DNA of 64,000 nucleotides from an uncultured Phycisphaeraceae bacterium (GTDB lineage Bacteria > Planctomycetota > Phycisphaerae > UBA1845): positions 3,182-67,181 of the forward strand of contig CAZMVD010000008.1 in assembly GCA_964569425.1 (NCBI GenBank). Direction: 5' to 3'. Each line of letters starts with the position of its first letter. Position 1 is the stretch's first letter. Position numbers and translations under genes: made by a program. The notes below the pieces were generated by a model. That model worked only from the letters and a program-made list of their open reading frames with translations, did no database searches and was not told where the DNA came from. Shown one piece after another: positions 10,499-35,243 of this stretch.

Positions 10499-12487
10499 AT
10501 GCCGGGTGCAAAACAACCCCTCGACGCGTTGACCGCATCGAACCAAGGTGAACGCCCGCTGCGCCATTTTATCCTGGGAACCGCCGGGCACATCGACCAC
10601 GGGAAAACTTCGCTCGTTCGCGCGTTGACCGGCGTGGATACCGATCGGCTTCCCGAAGAGCAGCGCCGCGGCATGACCATCGAGCTGGGGTTCGCCGATT
10701 TCACCATCGACGATGCGCATTTCGGGATCGTCGATGTGCCCGGGCACGAACGATTTGTGCGCACCATGGTGGCCGGCGCTACGGGCATCGACGTCGCCCT
10801 GCTGGTGGTCGCCGCCGACGACTCGGTCATGCCCCAGACGCGGGAACACGTGGATATCCTCCATCTGCTGGGCATCCGCCATGCGGTCGTCGCGCTGACC
10901 AAGATCGACGCCGTGGCGCCGGACCTTGCCGAGTTGGCGGCCGAGGAGATTCGAGAGTATCTGGCCAAAACACCGCTGGCCGCGGCCGCGGTGTGCCCGG
11001 TTTCGTCGATCACCGGTGCGGGTATCGAAGCGCTCAAGCGGGAGATTCTGGCGGTGGCGCGATCCGTTGCGGAGTCGCCGGCGGTGCGGCCATTTCGCCT
11101 GGCGGTCGATCGCGTCTTCACCGTGCAGGGTCGCGGGACCGTGGTGACCGGATCAGTGCTGCGCGGCGAGGTGGCGGCGGGGGACACGCTGGAGGTGTTT
11201 CCCGGGGGGCTCACCTGCCGGGTGCGTGACTTGCAGTCGCACGGTGCCGCCTCCGCCGCGCTGCATCGCGGTCAACGCGCGGCCCTCAATCTCAGCGGGA
11301 TCGACCGCGATGCCCTGGAGCGGGGGGCGGAGTTGGCTACGCCCGGCTACCTTCAGCCGTCGCACCTGGTGGACGTGCACTTGCGCGTGCTGGCGGGGTG
11401 CGACCGGCCGTTGAAAAATGCCCGCGTCATGCGTCTGTGCATCGGCACGACGGAGCTGGCGGTGCGCGTGGTGTTGCTGGGGCAAGCGCAACTCGATCCC
11501 GGGGCCGCTGGTTTTGCGCAACTTCGCAGCGGCAGCGCCATTCCGTCAGCGTACGGGCAGCGCTTCATACTGCGTGACGAAAACGCCGCGCACACCATCG
11601 GCGGGGGTGTCGTGTTGCGCCCGGTGGCGCACCGCCGGAGGCTCGCCCACGAATCCGAGGTCCAATCGCTGGAAACGCTGTTCGACGGCACGGCCGACCA
11701 GCGGGTGGAACAGGTGCTGCGGGCATCGGGCTTCACAACGCCCAGTGACTTGCAGGTGTGCCTTCGATCGGGGGTCGAAGTGGCGGAATTGCCTGCCGTG
11801 TACGCGCGATTGCGTCAGGAGGGAAGGCTTGTCCGCGTCTCCGACACCGAACGTTGCATGGTTCCTGCGGCACTCGACGACCTGGCCCACCGCCTGGCCG
11901 GATGGCTGGAGCGATTTCACCGCGCGCACCCCGACCTGCCCGGCCGGCCCCTCGATGCCGTGCTCGGCTGGATCGGCCGGATGACCGACCGCCCGCTGGC
12001 CCGCCCGTTGTTCGATCGGCTGGTTTCCAATGGCACGCTGAAACTGATGGGGCGGTTCGTGTGCCTGCCGGCGTTCGCTCCGGCGCTGTCGGCGGCAGAC
12101 GAGAAATTGCTGGCGGGGATTCTTAGCGCGGTACGGGGGGGTGGGTTCCAGCCGCCTATCCTGGACGAATGGCCGCTGCCCGGCGCGCCGGACCGCAAGC
12201 GCCGCGAGCGTCTGGCTACGCTGGCGGTGGCGCTGGGGGAACTGGTGCTGATCGAGCCTGGCATGTTTCTGTCTGCGGAGGGCGAATCGCAACTCCGGCA
12301 GAAGGTGCGCGACCTGATCGCCGCCTGTCCGGAGGGTGTTACGGTGGCGCAGGTGCGCGAAGCGCTGAACTCCAGCCGCAAGTACGTCGTACCGTTCCTG
12401 GAGCATCTCGACCGCGTCGGGTTTACCCTTCGCGCGGGCGATCGACGTGTGCTCGCCAACCGCGTAGACGAGCCGCCAGAAGCTTAA
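10499..12487 (+). CDS. selB: Selenocysteine-specific translation elongation factor
   Basis: [33 protein letters not shown]-terminal winged-helix [19 protein letters not shown]-binding region. Confidence 0.95.
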
Positions 12488-18301: not shown

Positions 18302-20140
18302 CTATCGGCAAACGCCCTGCTGCCGCAAGGCCACTGCGCGATCAGAGCAGACTGTGTCCCACGCCACGTTGCAGCAATCCGGGTCGTCCACGCACACCGC
18401 GTTGCAGCAGGCTTCCAGGTTGCAGCCGGGCGTGGTACGTGCCGAGAAGCAGCTTCCCGTACCGTTTACGCACGCGGCGAACAAACCGCATTCGAACCCC
18501 ACGCTCTCCACGCAGAAATCGTCCCACTCGCTCAGGCAGCAGAAGGGATCCTGCGTGCAGACGGCCTGGCACACGGTATCGGTCGCATCAGGAGTGGTTG
18601 CGCAATTCAGATCGTTGCAGCCGGGATTGGTGTGGGCGGACAGGCAGCTTCCCGCACCGGACGCACTGCACGTCGGAAAGCCGTTGACGATGCCGTCCGC
18701 CTTCTCGCCGCAGACGTCATCCCATTCGCTGTCGCAACAGAACAGGTCCACGGCGCATACCTGTTGACATGTGCTCTGGGTTTCACAGCCCGGCTGTGCG
18801 TGCGCGGCAAAGCAGTCTCCGCTGCCGTTGATGCAGGCGTTGGTTCCGCGAGTCGGATCACTCGAACAGAAAACGCTCAGCCGGCCGAGGCCCGTTACCC
18901 CTTCAAAGCCGCCCACCCGAATCATGTAGGACTGTCCCGCGGTCGCCGAAAAGGTCGTGCGCGAGTCTGTTCCCGTCCCGCAGTCGTCGTCGCTGCACGC
19001 CAATGGCTGCGCACTCGGGCACCCGCAACCGTTATAGACCATCACTTTGGTGTCGAAACTGCTGCCGCACAGGCTGACCACCACTTCTTCCGTGCAGGTG
19101 GCCGTGTAACAGTACCAGATGTCCGCGTCGACCTGCGTGTAGCCTTGCACCACACAGTGACCGGGCTGATCGGGACCGTCAGTGGTTGCCCCCGTGTTGG
19201 TAAAGGAGCGTGAAGTCTCGCCGATCGCCGTGGGGTTGGCGCAGTTGTTGTTGGCCAGCGCGCCGCCGATCGTGTTCTGACAGTTGGCGTCGCACTGCGA
19301 CGTGTTCGGCGGCTCGCACTGTTCGCCGGTCTCCACCGTGCCGTTGCCGCACACCGGTCCCGTCGGGATCCCACCGCCCCCGCCCGTGGGACACCCGGCG
19401 GCATCGACCACCGTTCCGGCGGGGGTGACCGGGCACTCGTCAAGGTCATCGGTCACGCCGTCGCCGTCGGCATCGCGCTGACTGGCCGCACAGCCCTCGG
19501 CATCCACGGCGGCCCCTGCCGGTGTATTCGGACACTGATCGTCGTCATCGAACACGCCGTCCGCGTCTGCATCCTCCAGCGGGCAGCCGTTGGCGTCGAC
19601 CTCCGTTCCTTCTGGAGTGGCGGGGCACTGGTCAATGTCATCGTTGACGCCGTCGCCGTCGGAATCGGGCGTGCCTGGGGCGCTGACCGGGCAACCCACG
19701 TCATCCACTGTAACTGTTGCCGGTGTGCGCGGACATTGATCCAGGTCATCTGTGACGCCGTCGTTGTCAGTGTCTCGCTGGCTGGCAGCGCAGCCGTTAC
19801 TGTCCACCGCCGCGCCCGCAGGAGTGTTCGGACATTGGTCCACATCGTCGCCCACGCCGTCCTCATCGGCATCGGGTGACCCAGGTGCGCTGATCGGGCA
19901 GCCCACTTCATTGACCGTGGTGTTCGGTGGCGTGGCGGGGCACTCGTCGATCTCGTCGCGCACCCCGTCGCCGTCGGTATCGGTGGGCGCAGGCGGCGGC
20001 GGATCGTTGTCGTTGCCGTTCGTGTTGGTATTGCCGTTGTTGTTTCCCGCGGGAGGGGGGCAGCCGACCGCGAAAAGACAAACCGCTACCGCCAGCGCCG
20101 AAACGATCAAGCGTGTGCTGTGAATCCCGTGGACAATCAT
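18302..20140 (-). CDS. Cys-rich lipoprotein with thrombospondin type-3 repeats
   Basis: Lipobox AVGC; six DxDxDGVxDxxDxCP repeats; CGNGTVETGEQC; three C-terminal CC-x3-WD-x2-C repeats; GAGG RBS upstream. Confidence 0.85.
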   Translation of the reverse strand: MIVHGIHSTRLIVSALAVAVCLFAVGCPPPAGNNNGNTNTNGNDNDPPPPAPTDTDGDGVRDEIDECPATPPNTTVNEVGCPISAPGSPDADEDGVGDDVDQCPNTPAGAAVDSNGCAASQRDTDNDGVTDDLDQCPRTPATVTVDDVGCPVSAPGTPDSDGDGVNDDIDQCPATPEGTEVDANGCPLEDADADGVFDDDDQCPNTPAGAAVDAEGCAASQRDADGDGVTDDLDECPVTPAGTVVDAAGCPTGGGGGIPTGPVCGNGTVETGEQCEPPNTSQCDANCQNTIGGALANNNCANPTAIGETSRSFTNTGATTDGPDQPGHCVVQGYTQVDADIWYCYTATCTEEVVVSLCGSSFDTKVMVYNGCGCPSAQPLACSDDDCGTGTDSRTTFSATAGQSYMIRVGGFEGVTGLGRLSVFCSSDPTRGTNACINGSGDCFAAHAQPGCETQSTCQQVCAVDLFCCDSEWDDVCGEKADGIVNGFPTCSASGAGSCLSAHTNPGCNDLNCATTPDATDTVCQAVCTQDPFCCLSEWDDFCVESVGFECGLFAACVNGTGSCFSARTTPGCNLEACCNAVCVDDPDCCNVAWDTVCSDRAVALRQQGVCR

Positions 20141-20429
20141 GTGGTTCCTCCCCCTGGACCATCCCCGGCGCGCGACCGGATCCCATGCGTCCTGTAGTCC
20201 CGCCTGTCGAAAAGGGAGCTTGCCGTCGCGGGGGCCACACAAGGGGATCGTCTGACCCACTTTATGCGGCACCCAGGTTTCAAGGCAAGGGCGCCGTCGT
20301 GAGCGCCGCTTATCGGAGGAAGGCGCCGCCGAGCCTGTCCGGGGCTTGAATCCGCGTGGCGATACCTATAGCGTAGGGGTTTAGGCGCAACGGACAGGGG
20401 CAGAAAGCCGTCCTCGGCAAGGATACACC

Positions 20430-20918
20430 ATGGAGCGGACCATTCGCGTAGGTGTGGGCTACGATATTCACCGCCTGGTGGAAAACCGCCGACTGATTAT
20501 CGGGGGAATGGAGATCCCCCACGCCAAGGGTCTGATCGGACACAGCGATGCCGACGTCGTCTTGCACGCCGTGTCCGACGCCCTGCTCGGGGCCGCCGGT
20601 TTGCCCGATATCGGTGATCTATTCCCCGACGATGACCCGAAATTCAAGGACGCCGACAGCCGAAAATTGCTCGGTGAAGTAGTCGCCAAGGTTCACGAGA
20701 AAGGCTTTCGGGTGGGCAACCTGGACGTTATCGTCCACGCCGAAGCGCCGAAACTCTCGCCCTATAAGCGGCAAATGGCGGAACGCATTGCCGCCCTCGT
20801 GGAGCTGGCGCCCGATGCGGTTAGCGTCAAAGCCAAGACCAACGAGGGGCTGGGCCCGTTGGGGCATGCCGATGCCATCGCTTGCACCGCCGTAGCACTG
20901 GTCTACATGCAACGCTGA
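20430..20918 (+). CDS. ispF: 2-C-methyl-D-erythritol 2,4-cyclodiphosphate synthase
   Basis: RVGVGYDIHRL, GHSDADVVLHA..DALLGA, DIG..F, KAKTNEGLG. Confidence 0.96.
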   Translation: MERTIRVGVGYDIHRLVENRRLIIGGMEIPHAKGLIGHSDADVVLHAVSDALLGAAGLPDIGDLFPDDDPKFKDADSRKLLGEVVAKVHEKGFRVGNLDVIVHAEAPKLSPYKRQMAERIAALVELAPDAVSVKAKTNEGLGPLGHADAIACTAVALVYMQR

Positions 20919-20958
20919 TTGCCGCGCTGCCCGGCCGCCACGATCAAGGAACTGCCGT

Positions 20959-22449
20959 ATGGGTCTGGTTGTGTATAACACGCTGACGCGAACCAAAGAG
21001 CCGTTCGAAACCGTGCGCCCCGGTCACGTGGGCATTTACCTGTGCGGACCGACGGTCTACAAGCCCAGCCACATTGGCCATGCGGTCGGACCGATCATCT
21101 TTGACGCCATCAAGCGTTACCTCATTTTTCGCGGCTACCAGGTCACCTGGGTCGTGAACATCACCGACGTGGACGACAAACTTATCGTTGAAGCCGCAAA
21201 ACAGAACACGTCCACTCTCGCGCTCGCCGAGCGCGTGACCGGGGACTACCTGGCCGCGATGAAAACGCTGCACGTCGACGGCATCGACCTTATGCCCAAA
21301 GCGTCGGAGCACATCGGCGACATCATCGACATCATCCAGCGCCTACAGCAACGCGATGCCGCGTACGTGTCCGGCGGCGACGTCTACTTCGACGTGACCA
21401 AGGACGCCGACTACGGCAAGTTGTCCAATCGCCGTGTCGAAGACCAGGAAGGCCAGCGCGACCTGCAAAGCGGGGACAAGCGCAACCCCGGCGATTTTGC
21501 CCTCTGGAAAGCGGCCAAGCCCGGCGAGCCGGATGAGGTCAAGTTCGACTCCCCCTGGGGCAAAGGCCGGCCCGGCTGGCACATCGAATGCTCCGCCATG
21601 GCCATGCGCTACCTGGGCGAGACTTTCGACATTCACGGCGGCGGCATGGACCTGATCTTCCCTCACCACGAGAACGAGACGGCGCAGTCGGAAACCTGCA
21701 CCGACAAGCCCTTCGCCAAGTACTGGCTGCACCACGGGCTCACCCGCTTCAACACCAAGAAGGTGGCCAAGTCCGACACCGACCCGGAAATGCAGGCGGC
21801 GCTGCTGCGCATGACGCTGCACAATCTGCTGGCCACCTATCCCGGCGAGTTGATCCGCTTCTTCGTGCTGAGCACGCACTATCGCCGGCCCATCGAGTAC
21901 TCCGAGGCGGAAATCGAAAGCAAGCGGAAGGGGTTGGATACGTTCTATCGTCTGTTCGAGCGCGTGGAGCGGGTCAGCGGCGCATCGCCCTATGGGGTCG
22001 CGACGGCCGACGGCGCCATCGCCAGCGCCACGCTTGCTTCGGCCTGTGACGAGCAGGCGGCCGAATTCGTTCGCGCCATGGACGAAGATTTCAACACCGC
22101 CGGCGCCATCGCCGCCTTGTTCGAGTGGGCCGGGGCGGTCAATCGCCATGTGGAGCAGGAGCGGCTCGAGTCCGGCGGGGCTGATTCGGCGAAACGCGAT
22201 GCGCTGCACGCCGCCGGCCGGCTCATCGCCACGGCGCAAACCATCGGGTTGTTCCTCGAGCCGCCACCGAAAAAGACCGGCGCCGACGACGGCCTGATGG
22301 ACAAAGCCATGCAGGTGCTCATCCACATCCGCCAGCACTTGCGCAAGAAAAAGGACTTCGAGTCCGCGGACCTCATCCGCAACCTGTTGGCGGAGCGGAA
22401 GATCACGCTGGAGGACCGCGCCGACGGCACCGTGTGGCGCGCCGAGTAA
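20959..22449 (+). CDS. cysS: Cysteine--tRNA ligase
   Basis: YLCGPTVY, HIGH, NITDVDDK, DFALWK, GRPGWHIECSAM, DLIFPHHENE; KMSKS variant KVAKS. Confidence 0.97.
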   Translation: MGLVVYNTLTRTKEPFETVRPGHVGIYLCGPTVYKPSHIGHAVGPIIFDAIKRYLIFRGYQVTWVVNITDVDDKLIVEAAKQNTSTLALAERVTGDYLAAMKTLHVDGIDLMPKASEHIGDIIDIIQRLQQRDAAYVSGGDVYFDVTKDADYGKLSNRRVEDQEGQRDLQSGDKRNPGDFALWKAAKPGEPDEVKFDSPWGKGRPGWHIECSAMAMRYLGETFDIHGGGMDLIFPHHENETAQSETCTDKPFAKYWLHHGLTRFNTKKVAKSDTDPEMQAALLRMTLHNLLATYPGELIRFFVLSTHYRRPIEYSEAEIESKRKGLDTFYRLFERVERVSGASPYGVATADGAIASATLASACDEQAAEFVRAMDEDFNTAGAIAALFEWAGAVNRHVEQERLESGGADSAKRDALHAAGRLIATAQTIGLFLEPPPKKTGADDGLMDKAMQVLIHIRQHLRKKKDFESADLIRNLLAERKITLEDRADGTVWRAE

Positions 22450-22454
22450 CCTGC

Positions 22455-24167
22455 TTACTCCTCCTCCTGCTGGTCACTTGGTCTTTCAACCCCCGGCGCT
22501 ACCTTCGTCCGGTCCGGCACTTGACCGGCCAGCACCACCGTGCGCGCCAGAATGTCACCCAGCCGCTGCCGCGCGGGGGTCAGCACCACCAGCAGCACCA
22601 GCGGGGGAAAGTAAAACTCCACGCAGCGCAACGCGTTGCGCACCAGGATCGCGCCCGGCCCGCACGGCTTGCCGGAATGGCCGACCACATACAGACCCAG
22701 CAGCCGCTTACCCACCGTCGTTCGCGCCGCCAACTCCATCACCGCCGTGTACACGCCGACAATGCTTCCCATCACCGGAAGAAAAAGAAATCGCGTCGCG
22801 GATTGCGCCGCCGGTGTCGCCTGCGCGTATTCCGCAACATCCAGCCCCTGCCGCAGAACCATGACGTACAACGCCGCTCCCCAGAATGGAAAAACCAGCA
22901 CGACGTCGATGAGCAGCGCGGCCGCGCGGCGCCCCAGCGGCGCCAACACCGCGTGGGCGGTCAACGGCACTTCGACAAGCACGCTGTCGCGCCGCCAGAT
23001 GAAGATTGCCGAGAGAATCCCCGCCAGCACCGCGTATTGCAGCAGCATCGATGCTGAAGGGCTTACGACCGGCTGCGGCGCACGAGAAAGTGCCTTCACC
23101 GTCGTCCATGGCTCGACCGGCGTGCGAGACTCGGAATCCCAGAGTGCCATTCGCGCTTCGCCGCCGCGGTCGGCAATCGCCACCGCCATTCGTCCCGCAA
23201 ACACGCCCACCGCAAACGGATGTTGGAGCCGCAGCGCCGCGCCCCCGTCCTCCTGAAGTTCCGCGCCCGTCCGCCAGTTTCCGTCGGTGAACCGAAAGGG
23301 CTGTACCGCGTGTCCGTCCGACCGGCGGAGAACCGCCAGCACCACCGGATCTTCCCCCGTCCAGCCGCCAGCCAGGGCGCTGGGCACGTCGTTAAACGAA
23401 AGGGTGGCCACGGTCGACCAGTCCGTGTTGATCCCGGAAGAGACGTGATGGCGGTAGCCGGCCCCGTCGGGCGAAAACCGGTGCAGGCAGTGAACGACGC
23501 CGCCGCGCGCCAACAGGATCAACGACGAAAAATGCGGCCCCAGGCCCTCCGGACCGGCACGATCCAGCTCCCATTGACCGTGCGCGTAACGCACCAGAAC
23601 CAGCTCCGTGTCCGGCACGGTCGTTGGCGCATCCGTCGGCGCCGCCGTTTCCGCGCCCTCCGGCGTGTCCCAGGCAGCGGATTGTGTTCGAGCCTCGACA
23701 ATCTGCTGCGCCTGGCGGTGCGTGACCAGCGCATACAGCACCGGCCGCTCCTGATCGGCCGTCAGCGCCAACGGCAACGCAGAGCGCGGAAGGGTGAGTT
23801 CGTTGAATTGCGTTCGCGAAGGCGTAGCCTCCCAGAGCGACGCACGCGGCGCATAGCGGCGATGCGTCCCGTCGCGATAGATGGCATGGAGTTGGGTCTC
23901 TCTCACCGCGGCGAAGCGAATGCTGCCGGTGGCAACGTTGCGCAACGCGAAAAACCGCCCTGCCGTGGCGTCACCGGCGCTGCGATACGCAAACCGCAGC
24001 AACAGCGTTCCATCCGGTTCCGGTTGGCGTTGGAACACCCAGAGTATCTCGTCATTGCCGACCAGCACGAGTTCCTGCGGATCCGCGGCCAGGCTCGCGT
24101 CGCTCGCCAGCGCCGAACTCACCAGGACCAGTGCAATGCGCATCAATCGGAGAGGTCGTCCAAACAT
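22455..24167 (-). CDS. Membrane protein with large N-terminal extracytoplasmic domain and C-terminal RDD domain
   Basis: RRAAALLID, TVGKRLLGLYVV, RN, QRLGDILARTVV; signal-like N-terminus; start uncertain. Confidence 0.8.
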   Translation of the reverse strand: MFGRPLRLMRIALVLVSSALASDASLAADPQELVLVGNDEILWVFQRQPEPDGTLLLRFAYRSAGDATAGRFFALRNVATGSIRFAAVRETQLHAIYRDGTHRRYAPRASLWEATPSRTQFNELTLPRSALPLALTADQERPVLYALVTHRQAQQIVEARTQSAAWDTPEGAETAAPTDAPTTVPDTELVLVRYAHGQWELDRAGPEGLGPHFSSLILLARGGVVHCLHRFSPDGAGYRHHVSSGINTDWSTVATLSFNDVPSALAGGWTGEDPVVLAVLRRSDGHAVQPFRFTDGNWRTGAELQEDGGAALRLQHPFAVGVFAGRMAVAIADRGGEARMALWDSESRTPVEPWTTVKALSRAPQPVVSPSASMLLQYAVLAGILSAIFIWRRDSVLVEVPLTAHAVLAPLGRRAAALLIDVVLVFPFWGAALYVMVLRQGLDVAEYAQATPAAQSATRFLFLPVMGSIVGVYTAVMELAARTTVGKRLLGLYVVGHSGKPCGPGAILVRNALRCVEFYFPPLVLLVVLTPARQRLGDILARTVVLAGQVPDRTKVAPGVERPSDQQEEE

Positions 24168-24298
24168 GGAGATTCGGCGTCGTGCGCGATTCGCGGGTGC
24201 AGGGAAAGGCATCGATGGCATTATGGTGAAGGCCTGCGTCCGCGGCAAGGCAAGCCCCCGCTGCGGCGAAGCGTGATCACCGGCGCAGCTCACCTGCC

Positions 24299-25147
24299 TT
24301 AATGGGTTCGCGAATCGAATTGGCAGGCCGGGGGCGCGGCGAATTGAATACTCGACTCCGTGACTTCGCTCACCAGCGACCACTTGCGAATCTGAAAACG
24401 CAACGCACTATCCGATTGCGGCCAGCTCACCGAAACTTCCCCCGGCAGGAACACGTCGCCCAGATCCTGGCGGCGATACCCGTCCAGCCGCGCGTCCATC
24501 ACCACGTCGCCCCTCGAATCTCGAAAGATTACCCGTCGCACCAGTCGCGGCGCAAACCGATCGAGCCAATACTCTTTCTCCAGCACCAACTGCCCGCGAT
24601 CGTCGCGCGGCAGAAACATCACCTGCTGATGCTCGTCCTCTATGCGCTGGACCTGGCGAACACCGCCCGGACCCAGCCAGTGCGTCGGAATCGGTCGCAG
24701 CCCCAGCGCGTCGATCATCTGATCCGCCCGCAGGGGAATGCCCTCCGGCAGGTCGTCCTCCCGGTCATGGCGACCGCAATAGAATTGCTCATCATCCCTT
24801 GTGTATACCCAGTACGCCTCCTGATTCGAGCCCACCAGCACTTGCGACTCGCCGAACTTCCTCAGGTCAAAGCGCAGGTTTCGCGGCCCAAGGTAGAAAA
24901 GCGTTCCGTCGGCGTGGTAACTCCGCCGCCGTCCCTCGAGCCGTACGTGGCCGTCCACCGTGCCGATTGCCCGGACCGTTCCGGGAATCGCCGCTATGTT
25001 CGCATTGACAATGCGCGCCGCATCCGCCAACGGCAGCGCTTCCAACGGCACCCGCACCACGGGACGATGGCATCCGCCAATCCCGCCCAAGGTTGCCGCC
25101 AATGCACCGGCTATACTGTGGACCCGCCAGGTCGCGTTAATGCCCAT
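24299..25147 (-). CDS. Hypothetical lipoprotein
   Basis: Lipobox-like IGGC; beta-rich sequence; overlaps the stop of the upstream gene. Confidence 0.65.
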   Translation of the reverse strand: MGINATWRVHSIAGALAATLGGIGGCHRPVVRVPLEALPLADAARIVNANIAAIPGTVRAIGTVDGHVRLEGRRRSYHADGTLFYLGPRNLRFDLRKFGESQVLVGSNQEAYWVYTRDDEQFYCGRHDREDDLPEGIPLRADQMIDALGLRPIPTHWLGPGGVRQVQRIEDEHQQVMFLPRDDRGQLVLEKEYWLDRFAPRLVRRVIFRDSRGDVVMDARLDGYRRQDLGDVFLPGEVSVSWPQSDSALRFQIRKWSLVSEVTESSIQFAAPPACQFDSRTH

Positions 25148-25718
25148 CGTCGGCGATCCCCCCTTCCTGGGGATGATCCGGCGCATCTTCCTCGCTCGCC
25201 AGTTCCTGCGCCCAGGGCCCCATGTCGCCGTGGAGTATGGCGCTCAATTGTGCGCTCACCGATTGAACTTCCGCGTCCGAAAGTCGGGGATTGACCACCG
25301 TGTGCCGGGACTGGTCCTTCACCAGCGTCATGTCCCAGGTTTCAACGCCCCCAACACTGGTAGTGCCTTCGTAGCGCAGTTTTCGCTTGCGCATCAGGAT
25401 CAGCGCCAGCACAAATCGAAACTGCACGCGGGCCGGTTCCACTTCGCGCGCCAGCCGCAGGAAGAACTGCACCAGCAGATCGTCATCCACCAGCAGCCGT
25501 TTCCGCTTCCGACTGACCGGCACCCGCGTCTTGAAGAAACAGAATGCCCCTTCCGGCGCGCCCTGCCATCCCCCCAGGCTGTAGTCCGCCCGCCGGAAAG
25601 TCTCACCCTCTTCGAAAAGAACGGTGTAGAACTCCTCCCCCTCCTCCAGCTTGTGCCCGGTAACCGCGCACACTCCATGAGGGCTGTCCACCTGCCAGGT
25701 CGTTTTGAACATCGCCAT
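25137..25718 (-). CDS. Conserved hypothetical protein (Planctomycetota-type)
   Basis: CAVTG..L..GE.FY, FVLALILMRKRKL and VVNPRL pattern; operon position. Confidence 0.7.
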   Translation of the reverse strand: MAMFKTTWQVDSPHGVCAVTGHKLEEGEEFYTVLFEEGETFRRADYSLGGWQGAPEGAFCFFKTRVPVSRKRKRLLVDDDLLVQFFLRLAREVEPARVQFRFVLALILMRKRKLRYEGTTSVGGVETWDMTLVKDQSRHTVVNPRLSDAEVQSVSAQLSAILHGDMGPWAQELASEEDAPDHPQEGGIADDGH

Positions 25719-25972
25719 GATCTTCCCTGATCGCCTTTCCCGGTCCGCCGGCCGTTTGAGGGCGCCGCGCGTTCTCGCCCGCGCCGTGGTTGGCCATTGA
25801 AGATGCACCAGCCGCCAACGTCAAGGCAGCCTCAGACCTTTCGCCGTCGTCTCCTTTTTTCTTGGTTTGCAATCCCGCGCACGATGACTATGCTGGGCAA
25901 GACTCCGTTGGGTATCGGCTGACGCTCGAAACTTCCTCGCTCGTGGGGGGATTTCCGCAGGGAGGCACTTCC

Positions 25973-27073
25973 TTGGCCAGACGTCGAAGAAAAAGAAAAA
26001 TTCCCGCATTTACCGCCGCAATCATCGTCGGCTGCGCAGCGTTCGGTTGGTGGTGGATGGGTGGAGACCAGCAAAGCACCAGCGACCTCCGGCCCGCGTA
26101 CACCCTCGGCCCGCCCATCTCGGCGAACCGCCGTGCCGACGCGCCGCGGGAGCGCGCCACGCCTGCCGCTCCCCTCAGTGGACCGCAACCGGCGCAATTG
26201 TCACCGCCGCCGGCCCAGCCCACGCTGGCGGCGGCCGATTCCGAAACGCCCCGGCAAACCGCCGCCAACACGCCCACGCCCGCCCGCACAGAGGGTGCGC
26301 CGCGTCCCGCGCCGTCGGCCGTTCCGCAGGAATCCGCCTCGTCGCTGCTGGCTGCCGGCCGGCAGGCCGCCGCGGCCGGCGAACTGGTCGCCGCACGTAC
26401 TCGCTTCGCCGAGGCGCTCCAGCGCAACCCCGCCCCCGACGAAGCAAAACTTCTGCGTTCCGAACTAGTTCGCCTCGGCGAAGAGACCATTTTTTCGCCG
26501 CGCATCCTCGAAAACGACACGCTCACCGAGCGTTACATCATCCAGACCGGCGATTCCCTCGCCAAGATCGCCAACAGATTCAAGGTCTCCGCCGATCTGC
26601 TCGCCGCCGTTAACGGCATCGCCGACAAGAACCGCATCCGCGCCGGCCAGGCCATCAAGGTCGTGCACGGGCCCTTTCGCGCCGTCGTCGATAAGAGAAG
26701 TTACACCTTGGACCTGCTTCTCGCTGACGTCCTCGTCCGCCAGTTTCCCGTCGGCCTCGGTGCCGACGGCAGCACCCCCACCGGCCAGTGGCAGGTCAGC
26801 ACCAAGCTCGTCAATCCGACCTATTACCCCCCGCGCGGCGGTGCCATCATCGCCGCCGACGACCCCAAGAACCCCCTCGGCGAGCGCTGGATCGGCCTCG
26901 TGGGGCTCGCCGGCGAAGCCCTCGGCCAGGAACGCTACGGCATTCACGGAACCATCGAGCCCGAAACCATCGGCCGCGATGCCTCACTCGGCTGCATTCG
27001 CCTTCATAACAAAGACGTGGAATCGCTCTACATGTGCCTGGTGGAAAAGCACTCCACGGTGATTGTGAAATGA
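25973..27073 (+). CDS. LysM + L,D-transpeptidase (YkuD/ErfK family), membrane anchored
   Basis: TTG start after GGAGG; TM segment, Pro/Ala linker, LysM (YIIQTGDSLAKIA), YGIHGT...SLGCIRL catalytic motif. Confidence 0.9.
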   Translation: MARRRRKRKIPAFTAAIIVGCAAFGWWWMGGDQQSTSDLRPAYTLGPPISANRRADAPRERATPAAPLSGPQPAQLSPPPAQPTLAAADSETPRQTAANTPTPARTEGAPRPAPSAVPQESASSLLAAGRQAAAAGELVAARTRFAEALQRNPAPDEAKLLRSELVRLGEETIFSPRILENDTLTERYIIQTGDSLAKIANRFKVSADLLAAVNGIADKNRIRAGQAIKVVHGPFRAVVDKRSYTLDLLLADVLVRQFPVGLGADGSTPTGQWQVSTKLVNPTYYPPRGGAIIAADDPKNPLGERWIGLVGLAGEALGQERYGIHGTIEPETIGRDASLGCIRLHNKDVESLYMCLVEKHSTVIVK

Positions 27074-27106
27074 CCGCTTGCTTCGGCCCCCTGGCCGGAG
27101 GATACC

Positions 27107-27664
27107 ATGGCCTGGATTTCCATCATTCCCGAACACGAAGCCCAGGGCCTGCTGGCTGAAATCTACGCCACCGCCGCCCGTCGCGCCGGCCGCGTGTTTA
27201 ACATCCTGAAAATCCAGAGCCAGAATGCCGAAGCGCTTCAGGCGTCGATTCAGATGTACCTCGCGCTCATGCACGGCCCCTCGCCGCTGACCCGCGCCCA
27301 GCGAGAAATGCTCGCCGTCGTGGTGTCCAGTGCCAACGAGTGTCACTACTGAGCCACCGCCCACGCGTGGGACCTCCGGTCGGAGGTCGACAATGACCGG
27401 TTCGCGCAGCAGGTTCTCACCGACTTTGCTCGCGCGCCCCTTTCGCCCGTGGACCGCGCGCTCTGCGACCACGCCATCAAACTCACCCGCGCCCCCGCCA
27501 GCGTGCGCCCTGCCGACCTCGACCGCCTTCGCCAACTCGGCCTCACCGACCGCGCTATTCACGACGCTACGCAGGTGATTGCCTACTTCAACTACATCAA
27601 CCGAATCGCCGACGGCCTCGGTGTCGATCTCGAACCCGAAATGACCCCTGGCAGCCCACTATAG
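27107..27664 (+). CDS. AhpD/carboxymuconolactone-decarboxylase-like peroxidase-related selenoprotein (Sec at UGA 27350-27352)
   Basis: ORFs 27107-27352 and 27449-27664 share one frame with a single TGA between them, in NEC-H-Y-*; downstream AYFNYINRIADGLG; SECIS-like hairpin; selB present. Confidence 0.88.
27371..27388 (+). promoter_or_regulatory. Candidate bacterial SECIS element (apical stem-loop)
   Basis: GACCTCC-GGTC-GGAGGTC: 7-bp stem with a G-initiated loop, stem begins 18 nt after the UGA. Confidence 0.75.
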
Positions 27665-27722
27665 TAGTCGTCAAATACATCGCGGGGCCGGGCGAGTCGC
27701 CGCAGGATCGGCAGCGGGGCTA

Positions 27723-27745
27723 TGGGACCGGCTTTCCAGCCGGTC
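27723..27745. repeat. REP-like palindrome
   Basis: TGG-GACCGGCT-TTCC-AGCCGGTC: perfect 8-bp stem in intergenic DNA. Confidence 0.5.
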
Positions 27746-28237
27746 GTCTCGGCTTTCGGCGTGTCGCCTACTCTGCTTATTCACTCCCGCTCTCCGCCAA
27801 GCTCGCCGCTCATGTTGTTCTTTCCGGCGTTTCAGGACCCGTCACCCGAGCCGGCACCGCCGGCGCCTGCGGCTGCACCGCCTCGCGATCGATTTGTTGA
27901 AGCGTCATCCGTCCGAGAACAGCGTCAATGGCAGGAGCCGTATGGCCGGAGCAGCGAGTTCGTAACAGAAATCCGGACGAGGCGAGGAACTTGTTGTGAG
28001 CCAGCCCGATATGGGACGGAGGGCACGAGGAAGTTCACGCGGGGATTGAGGCTCTCTCCGGGCGATTATCGGGTTTCGGCGGTCTTGGGCGCGGAAACTG
28101 CGAGCTTCATTTGCCCGGGGGTCGCGTGTATTGGAAATTGTGTATGCCGCTCCTGCTCGGATGTCGATGCAGAGCGGGGTGTCGTCGCCATAGGGTGACG
28201 AGGCCACACCAAACGTGGTTGGGGAAAGGGTGATCCC

Positions 28238-28417
28238 ATGAAGGCATTCATTCAGAAAGCACGCGCGTTTTGGCGCAACGAAGACGGTCCGACGGCGACT
28301 GAGTATGCGGTGCTGCTGGCGCTGATCATCGTCGGGGTCCTGGCGACAATGTCGCAGTTCGGGGCCCGGGTGGATTCGATCTACGTGACCATCGCCACAG
28401 CATTCGGGCAGATTTGA
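28238..28417 (+). CDS. flp: Flp family type IVb/c pilin 1 (absent from ORF track)
   Basis: Hand translation MKAFIQKARAFWRNEDGPTATEYAVLLALIIVGVLATMSQFGARVDSIYVTIATAFGQI; G-x4-EY Flp motif. Confidence 0.92.
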   Translation: MKAFIQKARAFWRNEDGPTATEYAVLLALIIVGVLATMSQFGARVDSIYVTIATAFGQI

Positions 28418-29287
28418 GCGCGACCGTGCGGCGGCGGGCGCTGGTGTACGCGGCAGCCTCGGGGCGGTCGGGTATGTGGCGCGTTTGCCGGTTCTCGTCC
28501 GAAGAGATTGACTGGGGGGATGGGCGTATCAAGTCAACCGCGCGTTCGCGCCGTCGGTATTCGACGGGGTGACCGCACAGTCAAGCACAACGGTCATTCC
28601 TCCGGTTTCCAGGAAACGCTGATGGGGGAGCATTGCAATTGCGTCCGGGGAGTCATGGATGTCCCGGGCGCAGGTGGGCGGCGAGTTCGACGGATGGGCG
28701 TCGAGGATCGCCATGAGCCGGAAACCAGAGCGTTCATCGCGATGGGTTTGCTTGCTCCTGAATATCCGGAGGTGCTGATGGGACTGGTTTCCTCAGCCAA
28801 GTTTCCCGCGGCGTCGACCGAAGAAGCGGGACCAATGGTCCGGGAATCTGTGGATGCACCGGCGGAGTGCCGGGGTCGTCCCAGGGGACGGGCCGGGTTT
28901 GATCAGCCGGCAGCGGTTGGTTCCACCGCTGCATCATCAGGTGTTTTCCAGTGCCATTTGCCTGGCACTTGTTTGTTTCGTACGGTGTATTCGTGAGGGC
29001 GGTCGCAGCCGCCACGATGTGTGTGGCCCGGTGCGACTGAGGGGAAGGAAGGCGTCACATCGGACCACCTTTCCCGAACCCGTTCGGGATTGTGACTTCC
29101 GGGGGATTGCGCCTGAGAAAAGGTGCACCAGGTTCCCGGAATCCACCAGGGGTGTTCAAACTCGTTACCCGCAGGAGGTTCGAGTCGTTTACAAGGGAGG
29201 GGTTGCGGCGCCACATCGGCGCTGCGGCGACCTTCGGGTAGCAAAGGGCTGCGAGGTCAGTCCTATGTCTTGGAAGGGAGATTACCA

Positions 29288-29467: not shown

Positions 29468-29696
29468 TCCGCGGTTGCGGACGCGGTCTTCCGGCGGGTC
29501 GGGCAGCGGCCTGGTCCTGACCGGATGACTCGGGGGGATTCAAGGGGGGTGGGCGTCGCCGGCGACGGTGGCGCCCACCACCTTATCCCGCGGGTGCGGG
29601 GGAACGGGAAACGAAGCGCAAGACCAAGCGGTGGGGGAACGGGCGGTACGCTACCGACCGGTCGCCACGGCGATGTTCCAATGGGGGACGCAGACA

Positions 29697-30251
29697 ATGG
29701 ACATGGGATTCTGGACAGTGACTTGCGCGATCCTGGTTCCCGGTACGCTATTGGCATCCTGGATTGACTACGCCCAGCGGCGGGTGCCCAACTGGTTGAA
29801 TGCGACATTGATTGCGCTGGGGTTTGTGGTCCAAGGCATTTACTTCGGGTGGTCGGGACTGGGCGTCGGACTGCTGGGGTTGTTCACAGGGTTTGGGCTG
29901 TTGATTGTGCCCTGGCTGATGCACGGGATGGGCGCGGGGGACGTGAAGCTGATGGCCGCCATCGGCGTATTCCTGGGACCGTTGCTGACCTTCTATTCGT
30001 TTGCGCTTGGCGCGGTCATCGGCGCCGGGGCGGCGATCGTGATGATTCTATCGACGGGGCGTGCGCGGATGGCGCTGTCCAACATGGGGATCATCATGAT
30101 GAAGTGCTCGAATCGCCAGACCATGTTCAGTGACTTTGGTTCGGCGAAGAGCTTCGGGGCGACGTCGCAACTGCTGCCGTACGGGGTGCCGTTGACGGCG
30201 GGGACGTTGCTGGTTCTGGGGGCGAAAATGTTCGGCTGGTGGGGGATTTGA
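29697..30251 (+). CDS. cpaA: Prepilin peptidase CpaA/TadV (A24)
   Basis: D...RRVPNWL, GMGAGDVKLMAAIG, LPYGVP. Confidence 0.92.
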   Translation: MDMGFWTVTCAILVPGTLLASWIDYAQRRVPNWLNATLIALGFVVQGIYFGWSGLGVGLLGLFTGFGLLIVPWLMHGMGAGDVKLMAAIGVFLGPLLTFYSFALGAVIGAGAAIVMILSTGRARMALSNMGIIMMKCSNRQTMFSDFGSAKSFGATSQLLPYGVPLTAGTLLVLGAKMFGWWGI

Positions 30252-30253
30252 CC

Positions 30254-30694
30254 ATGAGGCGAGGCCTTTTCATCAAGCGGAAGGCTACGGGCGACGGGTT
30301 CCGCGCCCGTGCCGCGGCGATCGTGGAGTTTGCGGTGGTGCTGCCGCTGCTGCTCACGATTCTTTTCGGGATTATCGAGTACGGGTTTGTGTTCCTGATT
30401 CGGCAGTCGCTCCAACATGCGGCGCGGGAGGGATGCCGCCTGGCGGTGCTGCAAACGTCGGTCGAGCCGTACGCCAACGTGACGGCTCGGATTGCCGAAG
30501 TGATGGGGCCCACCGGGTTGACGACCTATACGGTGAACATGACCCATGCCACACCGGCCAATCCGGTGGAGACGGTCACAGTGACCGTGCCGTACAACGA
30601 CGTTTCGCTGGTGGGCGGTTTTTTCGGCACGCAAAACTATGACCTGACGGGAAGCTGCAGCATGCGCAAGGAAGGATTCGATGACGGTTCGTGA
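30254..30694 (+). CDS. tadE: TadE-like pseudopilin
   Basis: AAAIVEFAVVLPLLL...IIEYG...AAREGCR. Confidence 0.9.
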   Translation: MRRGLFIKRKATGDGFRARAAAIVEFAVVLPLLLTILFGIIEYGFVFLIRQSLQHAAREGCRLAVLQTSVEPYANVTARIAEVMGPTGLTTYTVNMTHATPANPVETVTVTVPYNDVSLVGGFFGTQNYDLTGSCSMRKEGFDDGS

Positions 30695-30765
30695 CCGTGG
30701 TCGATTCGTGCATGCCGAAAAGAGATTGACAGGCAAGCCGGTCCCGGCGGCCTGACGAAGGAGCG

Positions 30766-30806
30766 GCGCCCCCGCGTCCGGCGTGACGCGGGGGACGCGC
30801 CTTTTT
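30766..30806 (+). terminator. Probable Rho-independent terminator after flp-cpaA-tadE
   Basis: CCCCCGCGTC-CGGCGT-GACGCGGGGG hairpin followed by T5. Confidence 0.6.
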
Positions 30807-32132
30807 CAGGCGGCGTTCGATTGGCGGAGAAGGCCGGGTTGCGGCCGGCGGTCGCAGGGCAAGTTCAGTGCCTCCCCGTTCGCGCCGGAAGGGCAATTCT
30901 TGCTGACGATACCGTTGAAAGGATGGACAGCGGCGCCGGGGGCCAGCGCGCCGTCGGTTCCGGCGCCTGCGCTGGCGGTGCGAACGCGGCTTGCCTCGGT
31001 GGACATTCTACGCGGCATCGTCATGGTGCTGATGCCGCTGGACCACCTGCGGGAGTATTTCGCGCATCGGGTGACGGCGCCGCATCCGGTAGAGTTTTCG
31101 GAAGCGGGCGCGGCGCTGTTTCTCACGCGGTGGCTCACGCATTTCTGCGCCCCGGCGTTCGCGTTTCTGGCGGGGACGGGCGCGTTTCTTTCGCTATCAC
31201 GAGGCAAATCTCGGTCGCAGCTCTCCCGGTACCTCTTTTCACGCGGTGCGTTTCTGGCATTGCTCGACCCGACGGTGATGAAGTTCTTCTGGTCTTTCAA
31301 TCTGAACTATCGCTATACGGAAGTCGGGATCTTGTGGGTCATCGGATGGTCGTTGATGGCGCTGGCGGCGCTGGTTCACCTTCCCCGCTGGGCGGCGTTG
31401 CTCTTCAGCGTGTCGATCATCGCGGGGCACAACGCGCTCGACGGGATTCGCCCGGAGTCGTTCGGAGCATGGGCGCCGCTGTGGAACCTGTTGCACGTGC
31501 AGGGTCAGGTCGAGGTGATCACGGGATTCAAGGTGTGGGTGGTCTATCCGCTGGTGCCGTGGATCGGCGTGGCCGCCGGGGGCTATGTCTTCGGGTCGCT
31601 GGTGGCGGATGAGGCGGGAATGCTCCGGCGGCGACGTGTGTTGTTTGTGGGGGTGGCGATTTCGGCCGTGTTTGTGTGGCTGCGGTGGTGGAACGTTTAC
31701 GGCGATCCGCGTCCGTGGACCGAACAGCCGCAGGGGGTGTGGACGCTGTTTTCGTTTCTGCACTGCACGAAGTTTCCGACGTCGCTGCTGTTTTTGTGCA
31801 TGACGCTGGGGCCGGCGATTGCGGCGCTGGCGATGGTGGAGCGACTGCCGGCGCGGATGGGTCAGTGGCTCGCGACGTTGGGTCGCGTTCCGTTGTTTTA
31901 TTACCTGGTGCACATCCCTTTGATTCACGTGCTGGCGATCATCATTGCGCACCTCACGCTGGGATCGGAGGTGATGCGGAGTGCGACCACGAGTCCGCCG
32001 CCGGGCTGGGGATTCGGCCTTCCGGTCATTTACCTGTTGTGGTTGGGTGTGGTGCTGGCGATGTTTCCGGCGTGCCGCTGGTTTGCCGGCGTGAAGCAGC
32101 GTCGCACCGAGTGGTGGTTGGGGTATCTGTGA
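30783..32132 (+). CDS. DUF1624 / HGSNAT-like polytopic membrane acyltransferase family protein
   Basis: RLASVDILRGIVMVLM.LDH, TRWLTHFCAP.F.FLAG, YPLVPW, K(F)P.SLLF, GRVPLFYY; true start probably near 30900-30980. Confidence 0.85.
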   Translation: MTRGTRLFQAAFDWRRRPGCGRRSQGKFSASPFAPEGQFLLTIPLKGWTAAPGASAPSVPAPALAVRTRLASVDILRGIVMVLMPLDHLREYFAHRVTAPHPVEFSEAGAALFLTRWLTHFCAPAFAFLAGTGAFLSLSRGKSRSQLSRYLFSRGAFLALLDPTVMKFFWSFNLNYRYTEVGILWVIGWSLMALAALVHLPRWAALLFSVSIIAGHNALDGIRPESFGAWAPLWNLLHVQGQVEVITGFKVWVVYPLVPWIGVAAGGYVFGSLVADEAGMLRRRRVLFVGVAISAVFVWLRWWNVYGDPRPWTEQPQGVWTLFSFLHCTKFPTSLLFLCMTLGPAIAALAMVERLPARMGQWLATLGRVPLFYYLVHIPLIHVLAIIIAHLTLGSEVMRSATTSPPPGWGFGLPVIYLLWLGVVLAMFPACRWFAGVKQRRTEWWLGYL

Positions 32133-32461
32133 GTTGCGCTCCATCGTGGTCGACTGTGGCGCGGAAGGCATCGCGTTTCGAGGGATAGGGGGTGCGGGTG
32201 TCGCGGGCCGGGGCGCGGCGTTGACTGCTGCGCGCCATCGGGCGGAAAGTATCGGACCGGCAGAGTTTGCGCCGGGGCGTCGAAAATTCCGTAGCTGCGC
32301 AGCTGGAATGTGCCGACCAGTCATCCGATAAGCACGGAGGTTCCACGGGCGATGGATCGGGATGGTTCGGGCGCAAAGCGAACCGGGGTTCCGAACCGGA
32401 TGCGGAGTGACGTACTCGCCATCCTCCGCGAGATTCCCGACGTGCGAGAAGAGGATCGAAC

Positions 32462-33547
32462 ATGAAGAGCAAGGCAATTATCCCGCTGGTGCTGGGCCTG
32501 GGCGTTGGCCTGGTGGCCGTCAAGTTTCTGATGGACACGGTGAAGAAAGCCCAGGGTTCCAATACCCAGCAGACGCAGGTTACCGCGGTCCGGGCCAAGA
32601 TGGACATTGAGGCGTTTCAGGAGATCACGCCGGACCTGGTGGAGCAAATCGAGACGGCGGCCAGCCCGCTGTTGCCCGCCGGCGACCGAATTGCCAAGTT
32701 GGAAGACGCCCTGGGGCGCGTGACGTCGAAAGCGATTCCCAAGCAGTCGCCGGTCCTGCAATCGATGCTGGCGCCGAAAGGCACGCCCGCAGGCATGTTC
32801 GGTCGAATTCCGTCGGGCTACCGCGCGGTGTCGGTGAAGATCGATGAAGCGTCTGCGGTGGCCTACCAACTGAAGCCGGGCGACTGGGTTGACGTCGTCG
32901 TGGTCATGGACCTCGACACCGGCAACCGCGGCCGGAAGAAGCAGACCATCGCGGAAGTGATTCTGCAGCACGTTCAGGTGGGCGCGGTGGGGCAGATCAC
33001 CGGGGCCGCTTCGGGATCGGCCGATTCGAGAGTGAAGCCGGCCAAGTCGGTGACGCTGATCGTTGCCGAGGAAGACGTGCCGAAGCTGCACCTGGCGGGG
33101 ACTCGAGGGAAGATCACGCTGGCGATGCGTGGTGCCGACGACCAGGTATCGGACCGGCCGCTGGTTGCGGACAGCGATCAGGTGTTCAGGTTCCTGAATG
33201 AGGATCCGATCGAAGTGCCACCGCCGGCGACGACGATCACATCGTTGACGACGGAGCCGGCGCAGCCGATTGAGATGCCGCACGGTGTGACGGTTTTCTA
33301 CGGTGCACCGCGCGGCCTGAAGGTCGAGCAGACGACGTTTTCGAACAAGGATTCGCGGATGATCGTGGAACAGGGCGAAGGGCGCGGAAGTCGTACGTCC
33401 GCATTGCTCAATCGTCCGGGTCGTTCCAGCGGCGCGCCGGCGCGACCGGCGGCGCCGGTGCCGCCCTTGCCGACGCCGGAAGCGAATCCTCAGGATGAGT
33501 ACACCGGGCCGGGTGACGAAAACGGCGGCGCAAACGAGGACGAATAG
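32462..33547 (+). CDS. cpaB: Flp pilus assembly protein CpaB/RcpC
   Basis: SAF-like region, IPSGYRAVSVKID, LKPGDWVDVV, GKITLAMR. Confidence 0.9.
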   Translation: MKSKAIIPLVLGLGVGLVAVKFLMDTVKKAQGSNTQQTQVTAVRAKMDIEAFQEITPDLVEQIETAASPLLPAGDRIAKLEDALGRVTSKAIPKQSPVLQSMLAPKGTPAGMFGRIPSGYRAVSVKIDEASAVAYQLKPGDWVDVVVVMDLDTGNRGRKKQTIAEVILQHVQVGAVGQITGAASGSADSRVKPAKSVTLIVAEEDVPKLHLAGTRGKITLAMRGADDQVSDRPLVADSDQVFRFLNEDPIEVPPPATTITSLTTEPAQPIEMPHGVTVFYGAPRGLKVEQTTFSNKDSRMIVEQGEGRGSRTSALLNRPGRSSGAPARPAAPVPPLPTPEANPQDEYTGPGDENGGANEDE

Positions 33548-33583
33548 TTGACGTGTCGAAGGGTCAGGGAACCCGTGCAGGAC

Positions 33584-35116
33584 ATGACGAAGATGAACAA
33601 AATGATGACAACGGTACGAACAACGGCAACGATGGTGAGCCTTCTGGCGGCATGGGCCATGCCGAGCGGCGTGTACGCCCAGGCGAGCGGCGAGTTCCAG
33701 GCATCCATCGTGGACATGACCGCCGCCTCTCGGAGCGTTTCGGTGCCGCTGAACCGCAGCGTCATCATCAAGACGACAGTGGAGGTATCGCGTGCGGACG
33801 TGGTTTCGGCTGAGATTGCGCTGGTGCAGCCGGTGAGTCCGACGGAGCTGCTGGTCACGGGGAAGAACTACGGGCAGACCCACGTGGTTCTGTGGGACAA
33901 GGCCAACAAGCAGTACTTGCTGGACGTCAGCGTGGAGGTTGACCTGAAACGGCTCAACGACGCGCTGCGGGGTATCGATCCGTTGTCGAGTGCGGAAGCG
34001 CGCTCGATCATGGGCAATATCGTACTGATGGGCTCGGTGACCAGCGCGGAGCGTGCCAAGCGCATGGTGGAGCTTGCGCAACTGCTGGTGCCCGCGGTCG
34101 AGGGGCGCGGCGGCCCCATGGTCCAGAACCACCTTGACGTGGCCGGTGAACAGCAGGTTCTGCTTCGTTGCGTGGTTGCGGAGATGAACCGTCGGGCGGT
34201 TCGCGATCTGGGAGTAAACGGTTTTCTGGCGGGGGACGATTTCAAGGACGCCTTCCTTGTCAACCAGATCGGCGGCATCAATCCGATCAACATCGGCGCG
34301 GCGGCGGCGGCGGAAGCCACGAGCCGGATTCCGTTTCTAACCGGTGCAGAAGGCATTCCACTGCTGGACGCCACAACGCTTTCGCTGGGGTTTCCGCGCG
34401 TGCAAATGCAGTTGTTCATCCGGGCGATGGCCGACAACCAGTTGGCCAGCATTCTGGCCGAGCCGAACCTGGTGGCGATCAGCGGGGAGACGGCGAGTTT
34501 TCTGGCGGGCGGCGAGTTTCCCATTCCGGTTCCGCAGGGCAATCAGCAGGTCACGATTCAGTTCCGCGAGTTCGGTGTGCGATTGAACTTCACGCCGGTG
34601 GTCAAGTCGCACCAGCGCATCCGGTTGCGGGTGGCGCCGGAAGTATCGGAGCTGGATTTCTCGAGCGCCGTGCAGATCGAAGGGTTTGTGGTTCCCGGAC
34701 TGACCTCGCGGGCGACGGAGACGACGGTAGAGATTGGCAACGGCCAGACGATCGCGATTGCCGGCCTGCTGAACGAGCAGATTCGCGGCGTATCGAGTCG
34801 CGTTCCGGGCATCGGCGACGTGCCGATTCTCGGAGCCTTGTTTCGGTCCGTTAATTTCCAGCGATCCTTGAGCGAACTGGTGATCCTGGTCACGCCGGAG
34901 TTGGTTGCGCCGCTGGATGCCCACCAGCGCATCCGCCTGCCGAACGAAGATTTGCGGACCCCCGACGCCTACGAACTTTATATGTTAGGCTTGCTGGAGG
35001 GATCCGCGAGTGCGGAGGGACCGGCGTCCCCCGAGGACGGTCTGGCAACCGCGAGTCTGCTTCGCTCGCAGCCTGATCTGGTTTCGCTACACGGGCCATG
35101 GGGGTACACGGAATAG
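33584..35116 (+). CDS. cpaC: Tad secretin CpaC/RcpA
   Basis: QVLLRCVVAEM, LAEPNLVAISGETASFLAGGEFPIP, FREFGVRLNFTP, PGIGDVPILGALF, ELVILVTP. Confidence 0.93.
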   Translation: MTKMNKMMTTVRTTATMVSLLAAWAMPSGVYAQASGEFQASIVDMTAASRSVSVPLNRSVIIKTTVEVSRADVVSAEIALVQPVSPTELLVTGKNYGQTHVVLWDKANKQYLLDVSVEVDLKRLNDALRGIDPLSSAEARSIMGNIVLMGSVTSAERAKRMVELAQLLVPAVEGRGGPMVQNHLDVAGEQQVLLRCVVAEMNRRAVRDLGVNGFLAGDDFKDAFLVNQIGGINPINIGAAAAAEATSRIPFLTGAEGIPLLDATTLSLGFPRVQMQLFIRAMADNQLASILAEPNLVAISGETASFLAGGEFPIPVPQGNQQVTIQFREFGVRLNFTPVVKSHQRIRLRVAPEVSELDFSSAVQIEGFVVPGLTSRATETTVEIGNGQTIAIAGLLNEQIRGVSSRVPGIGDVPILGALFRSVNFQRSLSELVILVTPELVAPLDAHQRIRLPNEDLRTPDAYELYMLGLLEGSASAEGPASPEDGLATASLLRSQPDLVSLHGPWGYTE

Positions 35117-35243
35117 CGTTACTGAGACGATGGACAAGTCATACGGTGCGCCTTGCCCTGATGGAGGCGATCGACTCGCGCCGCAATTCTGATCGTGGGC
35201 TGTAGCCCAGGTCGAGGGGACCAATTGGTGGGAGGGAAAGAAG

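Follow-up and report, generated by a model that had tools for sequence, protein, structure and literature searches.

The two apparent gene fragments at positions 27,107 to 27,664 of the 64,000-nucleotide stretch of DNA that was analyzed (hereafter the window) are one intact gene, which codes for an AhpD-like protein of 185 residues and is interrupted by a single in-frame TGA. We consider it very likely that this UGA is read as selenocysteine (Sec) by means of a hairpin that follows it, giving a CxxU site predicted to work as a thiol/selenol peroxidase-reductase. The gene is a further member of a catalogued selenoprotein family and not a new kind of system.

The frame starts with the ATG at 27107, meets the TGA at 27350-27352 and is then open to the TAG at 27662-27664, and both the sequence and its translation agree with the sequence-only reading, which had described one 185-residue frame broken solely by that TGA. 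The context of the stop is VVSSANECHY*ATAHAWDLR (CHY-U), and translation with TGA as U yields the 185 residues. The read-through product scored 154.2 bits against TIGR01926 over residues 3-177, well above the cut-off of 81.8, whereas the separate halves reached 54.1 and 79.3 bits and both fell below it. Neither half is present among the open reading frames of at least 90 residues. Pfam identified a CMD domain in the read-through protein, the sole CMD match across the genome. It aligned over nearly its full length with Cys-type AhpD-like proteins of solved structure (2PFX, 6K40, 3C1L, 2OYO and 2PRR; E values of 3e-28 to 7e-22), a sequence match that supports the predicted all-helical AhpD fold with a two-helix catalytic hairpin. 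In the alignment with 2pfx, 6k40 and 3c1l, the TGA of codon 82 faces a Cys, and its earlier placement at the second Cys of the CxxC motif was borne out accordingly. The closest named relatives were Phycisphaerae/Planctomycetota MAGs, with 60-69% identity, and 4 of the 5 rows for public runs containing the DNA of the gene carry a sludge metagenome label; an RNA run was absent from those listed. The features discussed below are collected in Table 1.

Table 1. Positions of the AhpD-like gene, its elements and other genes discussed (window numbering, except where a contig is named)
Feature	Position	Strand	Details
Genes around and between selB and the AhpD-like gene	5427-24383		hutU, nucleotidyltransferase, UvrD helicase, uppS, fabI, cysS, RDD protein
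selB, Sec-specific elongation factor	about 10529..12487	+	TIGR00475 347 bits (cut-off 242); SelB winged-helix Pfams
FG-GAP repeat protein	15573-17090		Within 5427-24383; a TSP3-repeat protein also lies in that region
LysM + YkuD L,D-transpeptidase	25790..27073	+	Ends 33 nt 5' of the ATG; Pfam
Shine-Dalgarno-like GGAGGA	27097..27102	+	4 nt 5' of the ATG; sequence
AhpD-like (TIGR01926) selenoprotein gene (Sec predicted)	27107..27664	+	185 aa with U82; passes TIGR01926 only when read through
Glu67 codon, proton-relay residue	27305..27307	+	Glu in 100/100 unique loci; equivalent to PA0269 Glu36 and M. tuberculosis Glu118
Cys79 codon, first position of CxxU	27341..27343	+	Cys in 100/100 unique loci
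In-frame TGA, inferred Sec codon (codon 82)	27350..27352	+	Second Cys of CxxC in homologues
His86 codon, proton-relay residue	27362..27364	+	His in 100/100 unique loci; 3' of the TGA
Predicted SECIS hairpin	27371..27388	+	Stem of 7 bp; energy of -11.6 kcal/mol; the GGUC loop begins 25 nt 3' of the UGA
Tad/Flp pilus cluster	29568-41018	+	A24 prepilin peptidase, TadE, CpaB, secretin, TadG/VWA, CpaE/MinD-like ATPase, TadA ATPase
Five other candidate selenoprotein genes	C62:10499(-), C28:10943(+), C59:8414(+), C36:20715(-), C18 selD (L212-L216)		TGA at the family Cys/Sec position

We determined whether the TGA is genuine by searching public runs for the same DNA. Three contigs showed 0 differences across the TGA, namely X1 (27315-27476), X2 (27039-27378) and X5 (27340-27490); X5 belongs to another study, X1 may represent the source sample, and only the X1 piece spans more than 31 letters on each side of the TGA. 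A TGC or TGT in the reads had been named as the mark of a sequencing error, and no public-run contig has another letter at the TGA.

The stop is also widely conserved. TGA occupies codon 82 in 109 of 110 loci of named and related genomes, a set that counts some duplicates and the copy in the window itself; the exception, L131, came from picking the wrong piece of a split match and was excluded from then on. Distant or paralogous copies gave a similar picture, with TGA in 21 of the 22 examined and TGC in one (L233). In a survey of Planctomycetota, 136 of 401 sampled genomes had a match at E <=1e-25, and among the matches listed all but one contain TGA. The TGA-bearing homologues span several phyla. 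Each of Glu67, Cys79, Tyr81, U82 and His86 was found in 100/100 unique loci, none of which (0/100) has a second stop before codon 172. We compared 14 close relatives on the two sides of the UGA and obtained uncorrected pN/pS values of 0.245/0.613 upstream and 0.240/0.664 downstream, with pS near saturation, so that the ratios overstate omega. Purifying selection is therefore equally strong before and after the UGA, and the homologue alignment shows both the Cys/UGA pairing and the conservation on either side that the sequence-only reading had looked for. The stop itself is the only feature that would speak for a pseudogene or for a sequencing or assembly error. The identical letters in public-run contigs, the same TGA across several phyla and the equal selection on either side make such an origin of the TGA exceedingly improbable.

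In protein databases the same position appears in a different guise. Among 121 database rows, codon 82 is given as W in 48 and as G in 2, and 49 rows are devoid of positions 79-82, most of these being orphan C-terminal halves whose first residue comes directly behind the TGA. The W-type and orphan-half proteins are P0003-P0068, and the corresponding DNA loci are L132-L211. The W and G rows could indicate that UGA is decoded as Trp, Cys or Gly because the genetic code is altered or a suppressor tRNA is at work. We fetched metagenome DNA loci with one database protein showing W as the query, and all 80 of 80 have TGA; in addition, the sole UCA-anticodon tRNA among the tRNA calls of the genome is tRNA-Sec, and TGA terminates ordinary genes here, such as the upstream L,D-transpeptidase. 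Decoding as one of these other residues is thus very improbable. As all 80 DNA loci of the sampled W group carry TGA, the database W most likely reflects a code choice made by gene callers, and a real Trp or Gly substitution at position 82 was rejected for that group; the check at the DNA level applies to the sampled W group, with the G, R and S rows outside it.

The orphan halves raise another possibility, that translation does end at the TGA and then restarts, producing two polypeptides that assemble into the enzyme. Many stand-alone C-terminal halves that begin just after the TGA exist in public databases, and some homologues have a GTG directly after it. In the present gene, the TGA is followed by GCC at codon 83, and no alternative in-frame start occurs before the GTG of Val115, so the invariant His86 would be lost. 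Since it lies between the TGA and Val115, His86 is made by read-through alone. Such a split would, in addition, cost the enzyme its second redox residue and leave without explanation both the SECIS-like constraint and the joint occurrence with selA described below; the database halves are accounted for by gene callers. We therefore give this two-polypeptide arrangement very little credence. The prediction that standard annotation would split the gene proved correct, as gene callers either split it or read its UGA as Trp. As a consequence, a widespread selenoprotein is under-counted, and the present result is mainly an annotation fix.

Read-through as Sec calls for a dedicated machinery, which we searched for in the genome examined (4.4 Mb, 92% complete). 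ARAGORN and RF01852 (66.5 bits) both detected selC, the gene for tRNA-Sec, and selA (578.6 bits) and selD (378.3 bits) scored over their cut-offs, with one TGA in selD. The selA, selC and selD genes sought to back the initial proposal are hence all present, and together with the TGA-identical contigs and the equal selection, they support recoding rather than a pseudogene, as first suggested. The start of selB is inferred at 10529, while the list of open reading frames gives 10136. The gene lies 14.6 kb upstream of the AhpD-like gene, in good agreement with the initial estimate of about 15 kb. The proximity of selB was rejected as evidence for an operon, given that the gap is filled with unrelated genes.

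The presence of selA was then compared with that of the TGA-bearing gene. Among 60 relatives, selA was found in 52; it was present in 33/33 of those with a TGA-bearing match, and 0/8 of the selA-less relatives have such a match, seven of them being without any match and one having a weak stop-free match. Of 80 more distant carriers, 50 chosen mostly outside Planctomycetota were analyzed, and 49/50 had a selA match (Acidobacteriota, Chloroflexota, Gemmatimonadota, Actinomycetota and others), the unmatched one being G087, whose completeness is not given. In these counts, the relatives are not independent, the genomes are MAGs, and selA is the gene that was searched.

Five further candidate selenoprotein genes were found in the genome, coding for a glutathione peroxidase, a TlpA/ResA-like UxxC protein, a MerB-like alkylmercury lyase, SelW/Rdx and SelD. 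Each of the four other than selD has a model-type hairpin, three of which are weaker than -7.5 kcal/mol or near that value. The genome-wide TGA scan listed no model-type hairpin for selD, which came from its own search and was unranked by the scan. That scan is a heuristic that returns many false candidates, and 6 of 11 read-through frames were dropped by eye; the resulting selenoproteome count is a minimum. These data indicate that the Sec trait is active in this probable Phycisphaerae genome, where at least six genes are candidates for selenoproteins. The core of the glutathione peroxidase hairpin, CTCC-GGTCT-GGAG, closely resembles that of the AhpD hairpin.

We next considered the hairpin itself. 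A 7-bp hairpin beginning 18 nt 3' of the TGA had been noticed at the outset, and RNA folding formed GACCTCC-GGTC-GGAGGTC in 4/4 folds tried. According to the available part of PMC13188914, the bSECIS model specifies a loop of 3-9 nt starting with GG or GU, a stem of 4-16 bp, a spacing of 16-37 nt and a folding energy of <=-7.5 kcal/mol. In our own implementation of the model as set out in that part, the hairpin fits, with its 4-nt GGUC loop, 7 bp, 25 nt and -11.6 kcal/mol. By itself, its folding energy included, it is weak evidence for a SECIS, because the genome has 64% GC, a hairpin that fits the model follows 5666 (5.2%) of the 109795 TGAs in its six frames, and the dinucleotide-shuffle z-scores of the folding energy are modest (-0.31, -0.86, -2.0 and -0.05). 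Only in the tightest window, of 31 nt, does the energy stand out from such shuffles. When the window's own peptide was recoded synonymously, an equally stable hairpin arose in just 13 of 5000 recodings.

The comparative evidence for a SECIS is stronger than that from folding. Leu90 is encoded by CTC in 94/94 loci (background, 34%) and Arg91 by CGG or CGT in 96/99 (background, 32%), while codons are mixed at other conserved Leu and Arg columns, and among well-filled columns none besides these and Ser38 is strongly skewed. The hairpin codons have a pS of 0.24, compared with 0.61 and 0.66 on the flanks. Over 144 distinct sequences, the six-pair stem was 88% paired, versus 82.9% in shuffles and 27-54% in slid controls. 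Two-sided changes, chiefly from C-G to U-A and at two of the pairs, numbered 69 versus 30 in shuffles, in a covariation test that is inflated by the relatedness of the sequences and by the derivation of the structure from those same sequences. Three pairs showed a two-sided change, a number matched by 187/500 shuffles and therefore not above chance. The innermost, seventh pair occurs in a minority of relatives; there, the loop is 6 nt long with G in second place. The large set of homologues provides a well-supported natural alignment of SECIS elements.

That alignment also revealed relatives in which the hairpin appears to be displaced. A tree built by quick search without the hairpin codons placed 25 rows on one branch (SH-aLRT 96), 23 of them labelled Acidobacteriota and 2 unassigned, L126 having been excluded from the tree as too short; the rows include L037, L039-L041, L043, L046, L048, L052 and L055-L058. 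In this clade the window-type stem is mostly lost, but a different hairpin, of 8 bp and with GGA as its loop at +17, is kept; codon choice at positions 86-91 is fixed or restricted in 25/25 rows, against mixed backgrounds. A group of paralogues (L128, L224-L232) retains most of the +17 register, and in 9/21 paralogue rows the innermost pair of the +17 hairpin is C-G in place of A-U, a compensatory change. Both registers are possible in eleven marine-clade rows, and paralogues with HHRRGLRR have a third hairpin. On balance we lean slightly toward the view that the SECIS slid along the coding sequence, with CUCC serving as the 5' arm (loop at +24/+25) in most members, the present gene among them, and as the 3' arm of a different hairpin (loop at +17) in the Acidobacteriota clade and the paralogues. 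This putative shift concerns one clade plus paralogues and hence few independent events. Searching the literature for shifts in SECIS register, too narrowly to show that they are unpublished, gave nothing relevant among the papers listed. If the shift is true, the family would be a natural experiment on the rebuilding of an in-frame SECIS within a constrained coding sequence and on what SelB actually reads.

From established SelB/SECIS biology, we infer that Sec is inserted at residue 82. SelB carrying Sec-tRNA(Sec) would bind the GGUC loop 25 nt past the UGA and place Sec at that residue. The Sec82 selenolate would then attack either a peroxide or the disulfide of a protein to form a Cys79-Sec82 selenenylsulfide, which may be re-reduced through a dihydrolipoamide/Lpd/NADH route; Lpd was found in the genome. 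In the AhpD of M. tuberculosis, it is the second Cys that attacks. Two Cys homologues have a TxxC motif, with Thr at position 79 and Cys82 kept, and position 82 as the attacking residue fits with this arrangement. The series Glu67-Cys79-Tyr81-Sec82-His86 maps one-to-one on Glu36-Cys48-Tyr50-Cys51-His55 of PA0269 (2O4D), with the same spacing of the Glu-Cys-x-x-Cys-His relay, as far as the available text of PMC3141380 describes it. Unlike the Cys-type AhpD proteins, including PA0269 and M. tuberculosis AhpD, the protein would have Sec in place of the second Cys. It also differs from them in that the AhpC-type partner domain was not found in its genome: the AhpC-type C-terminal domain (PF10417) had no match in the 92%-complete assembly, where 14 matches to the AhpC-TSA domain were obtained.

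A peroxidase activity may be assigned to the protein on the basis of its Cys homologues, and its role is most likely the direct reduction of peroxide or the reduction of a non-AhpC thiol peroxidase. The accessible portion of PMC3141380 reports a weak cysteine-dependent H2O2-reducing activity for PA0269. In the parts available of PMC8945050, PMC6300522 and PMC10460364, a mutant in DR1765, an AhpD-like protein from D. radiodurans, is described as H2O2 sensitive, and AhpD proteins are described as being reduced through lipoamide/NADH and able to regenerate peroxidases. A real selenoprotein with a role unrelated to peroxide, as a disulfide reductase or redox adaptor, or one that handles another electrophile or a metal, is a possibility to be taken seriously, although we do not favor it. 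Such a role would accord with the AhpD proteins of Corynebacterium and Mycobacterium, which, according to the sections available, are chiefly reductases of peroxidases, with the 14 AhpC-TSA-domain matches as possible targets, and with the rubredoxin-like C-terminal domain of some homologues. The activity of PA0269 and the phenotype of the DR1765 mutant argue against it, as does the absence of a candidate target gene adjacent to the gene within the window. It alters only the substrate step of the peroxidase-reductase mechanism proposed above.

The sequence-only reading had treated AhpD-like CxxU selenoproteins as known, and the published selenoproteome tables confirm it, to the extent that their available text covers the family. 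The 2005 Sargasso Sea survey lists 27 sequences under COG2128 with a SECIS figure (PMC1088965), the GOS survey counts 299 (PMC2398784), a 2026 review tabulates TIGR01926/CxxU (PMC13188914), and the family can be browsed in BSepDB (PMC13326102). The gene resembles 'AhpD-like 1' (COG2128/TIGR01926) in scoring over the cut-off of the same model and in having the same CxxU and the same downstream SECIS. It shows no difference in kind from that family, its host here being most likely a Phycisphaerae planctomycete. The use of Sec in planctomycetes has already been published, as the available part of PMC4807772 indicates. In a literature search combining Phycisphaerae and selenocysteine, none of the titles and abstract openings returned was on the topic. 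Other selenoproteins, NF041238, CMD-like PF02627 and NF041047, have CxxU in the same fold class, according to the parts of the sources available. Membership in NF041238 was rejected at 73.7 bits versus a cut-off of 175 (the model is 357 positions long), and NF041047 was absent among the profile hits of the read-through protein.

Several homologues depart from the architecture of the protein described here. A C-terminal rubredoxin-like/DUF7130 region, below or just over the Pfam cut-off, is present in some of them (P0090, P0097), and others have an insertion just past the segment that codes for the SECIS; such cases, split matches included, occur in G009, G012, G019, G029, G032, G041, G051 and G055. 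Many planctomycetes (e.g., G014, G017, G019, G021, G022, G023 and G031) have at least two TGA-bearing AhpD-like paralogues, and one is present here.

Finally, we looked at the surroundings of the gene. A scan of 25000-29000 for promoters and terminators gave counts at chance level. An L,D-transpeptidase gene lies beside the AhpD-like gene in 27/190 locus rows, many of them from Phycisphaerae relatives; some duplicates and the row of the window itself are counted here, and flank lengths differ between rows. The association with the L,D-transpeptidase is one of position. On the other side, the Tad/Flp pilus cluster includes a gene for an HGSNAT-type acyltransferase.
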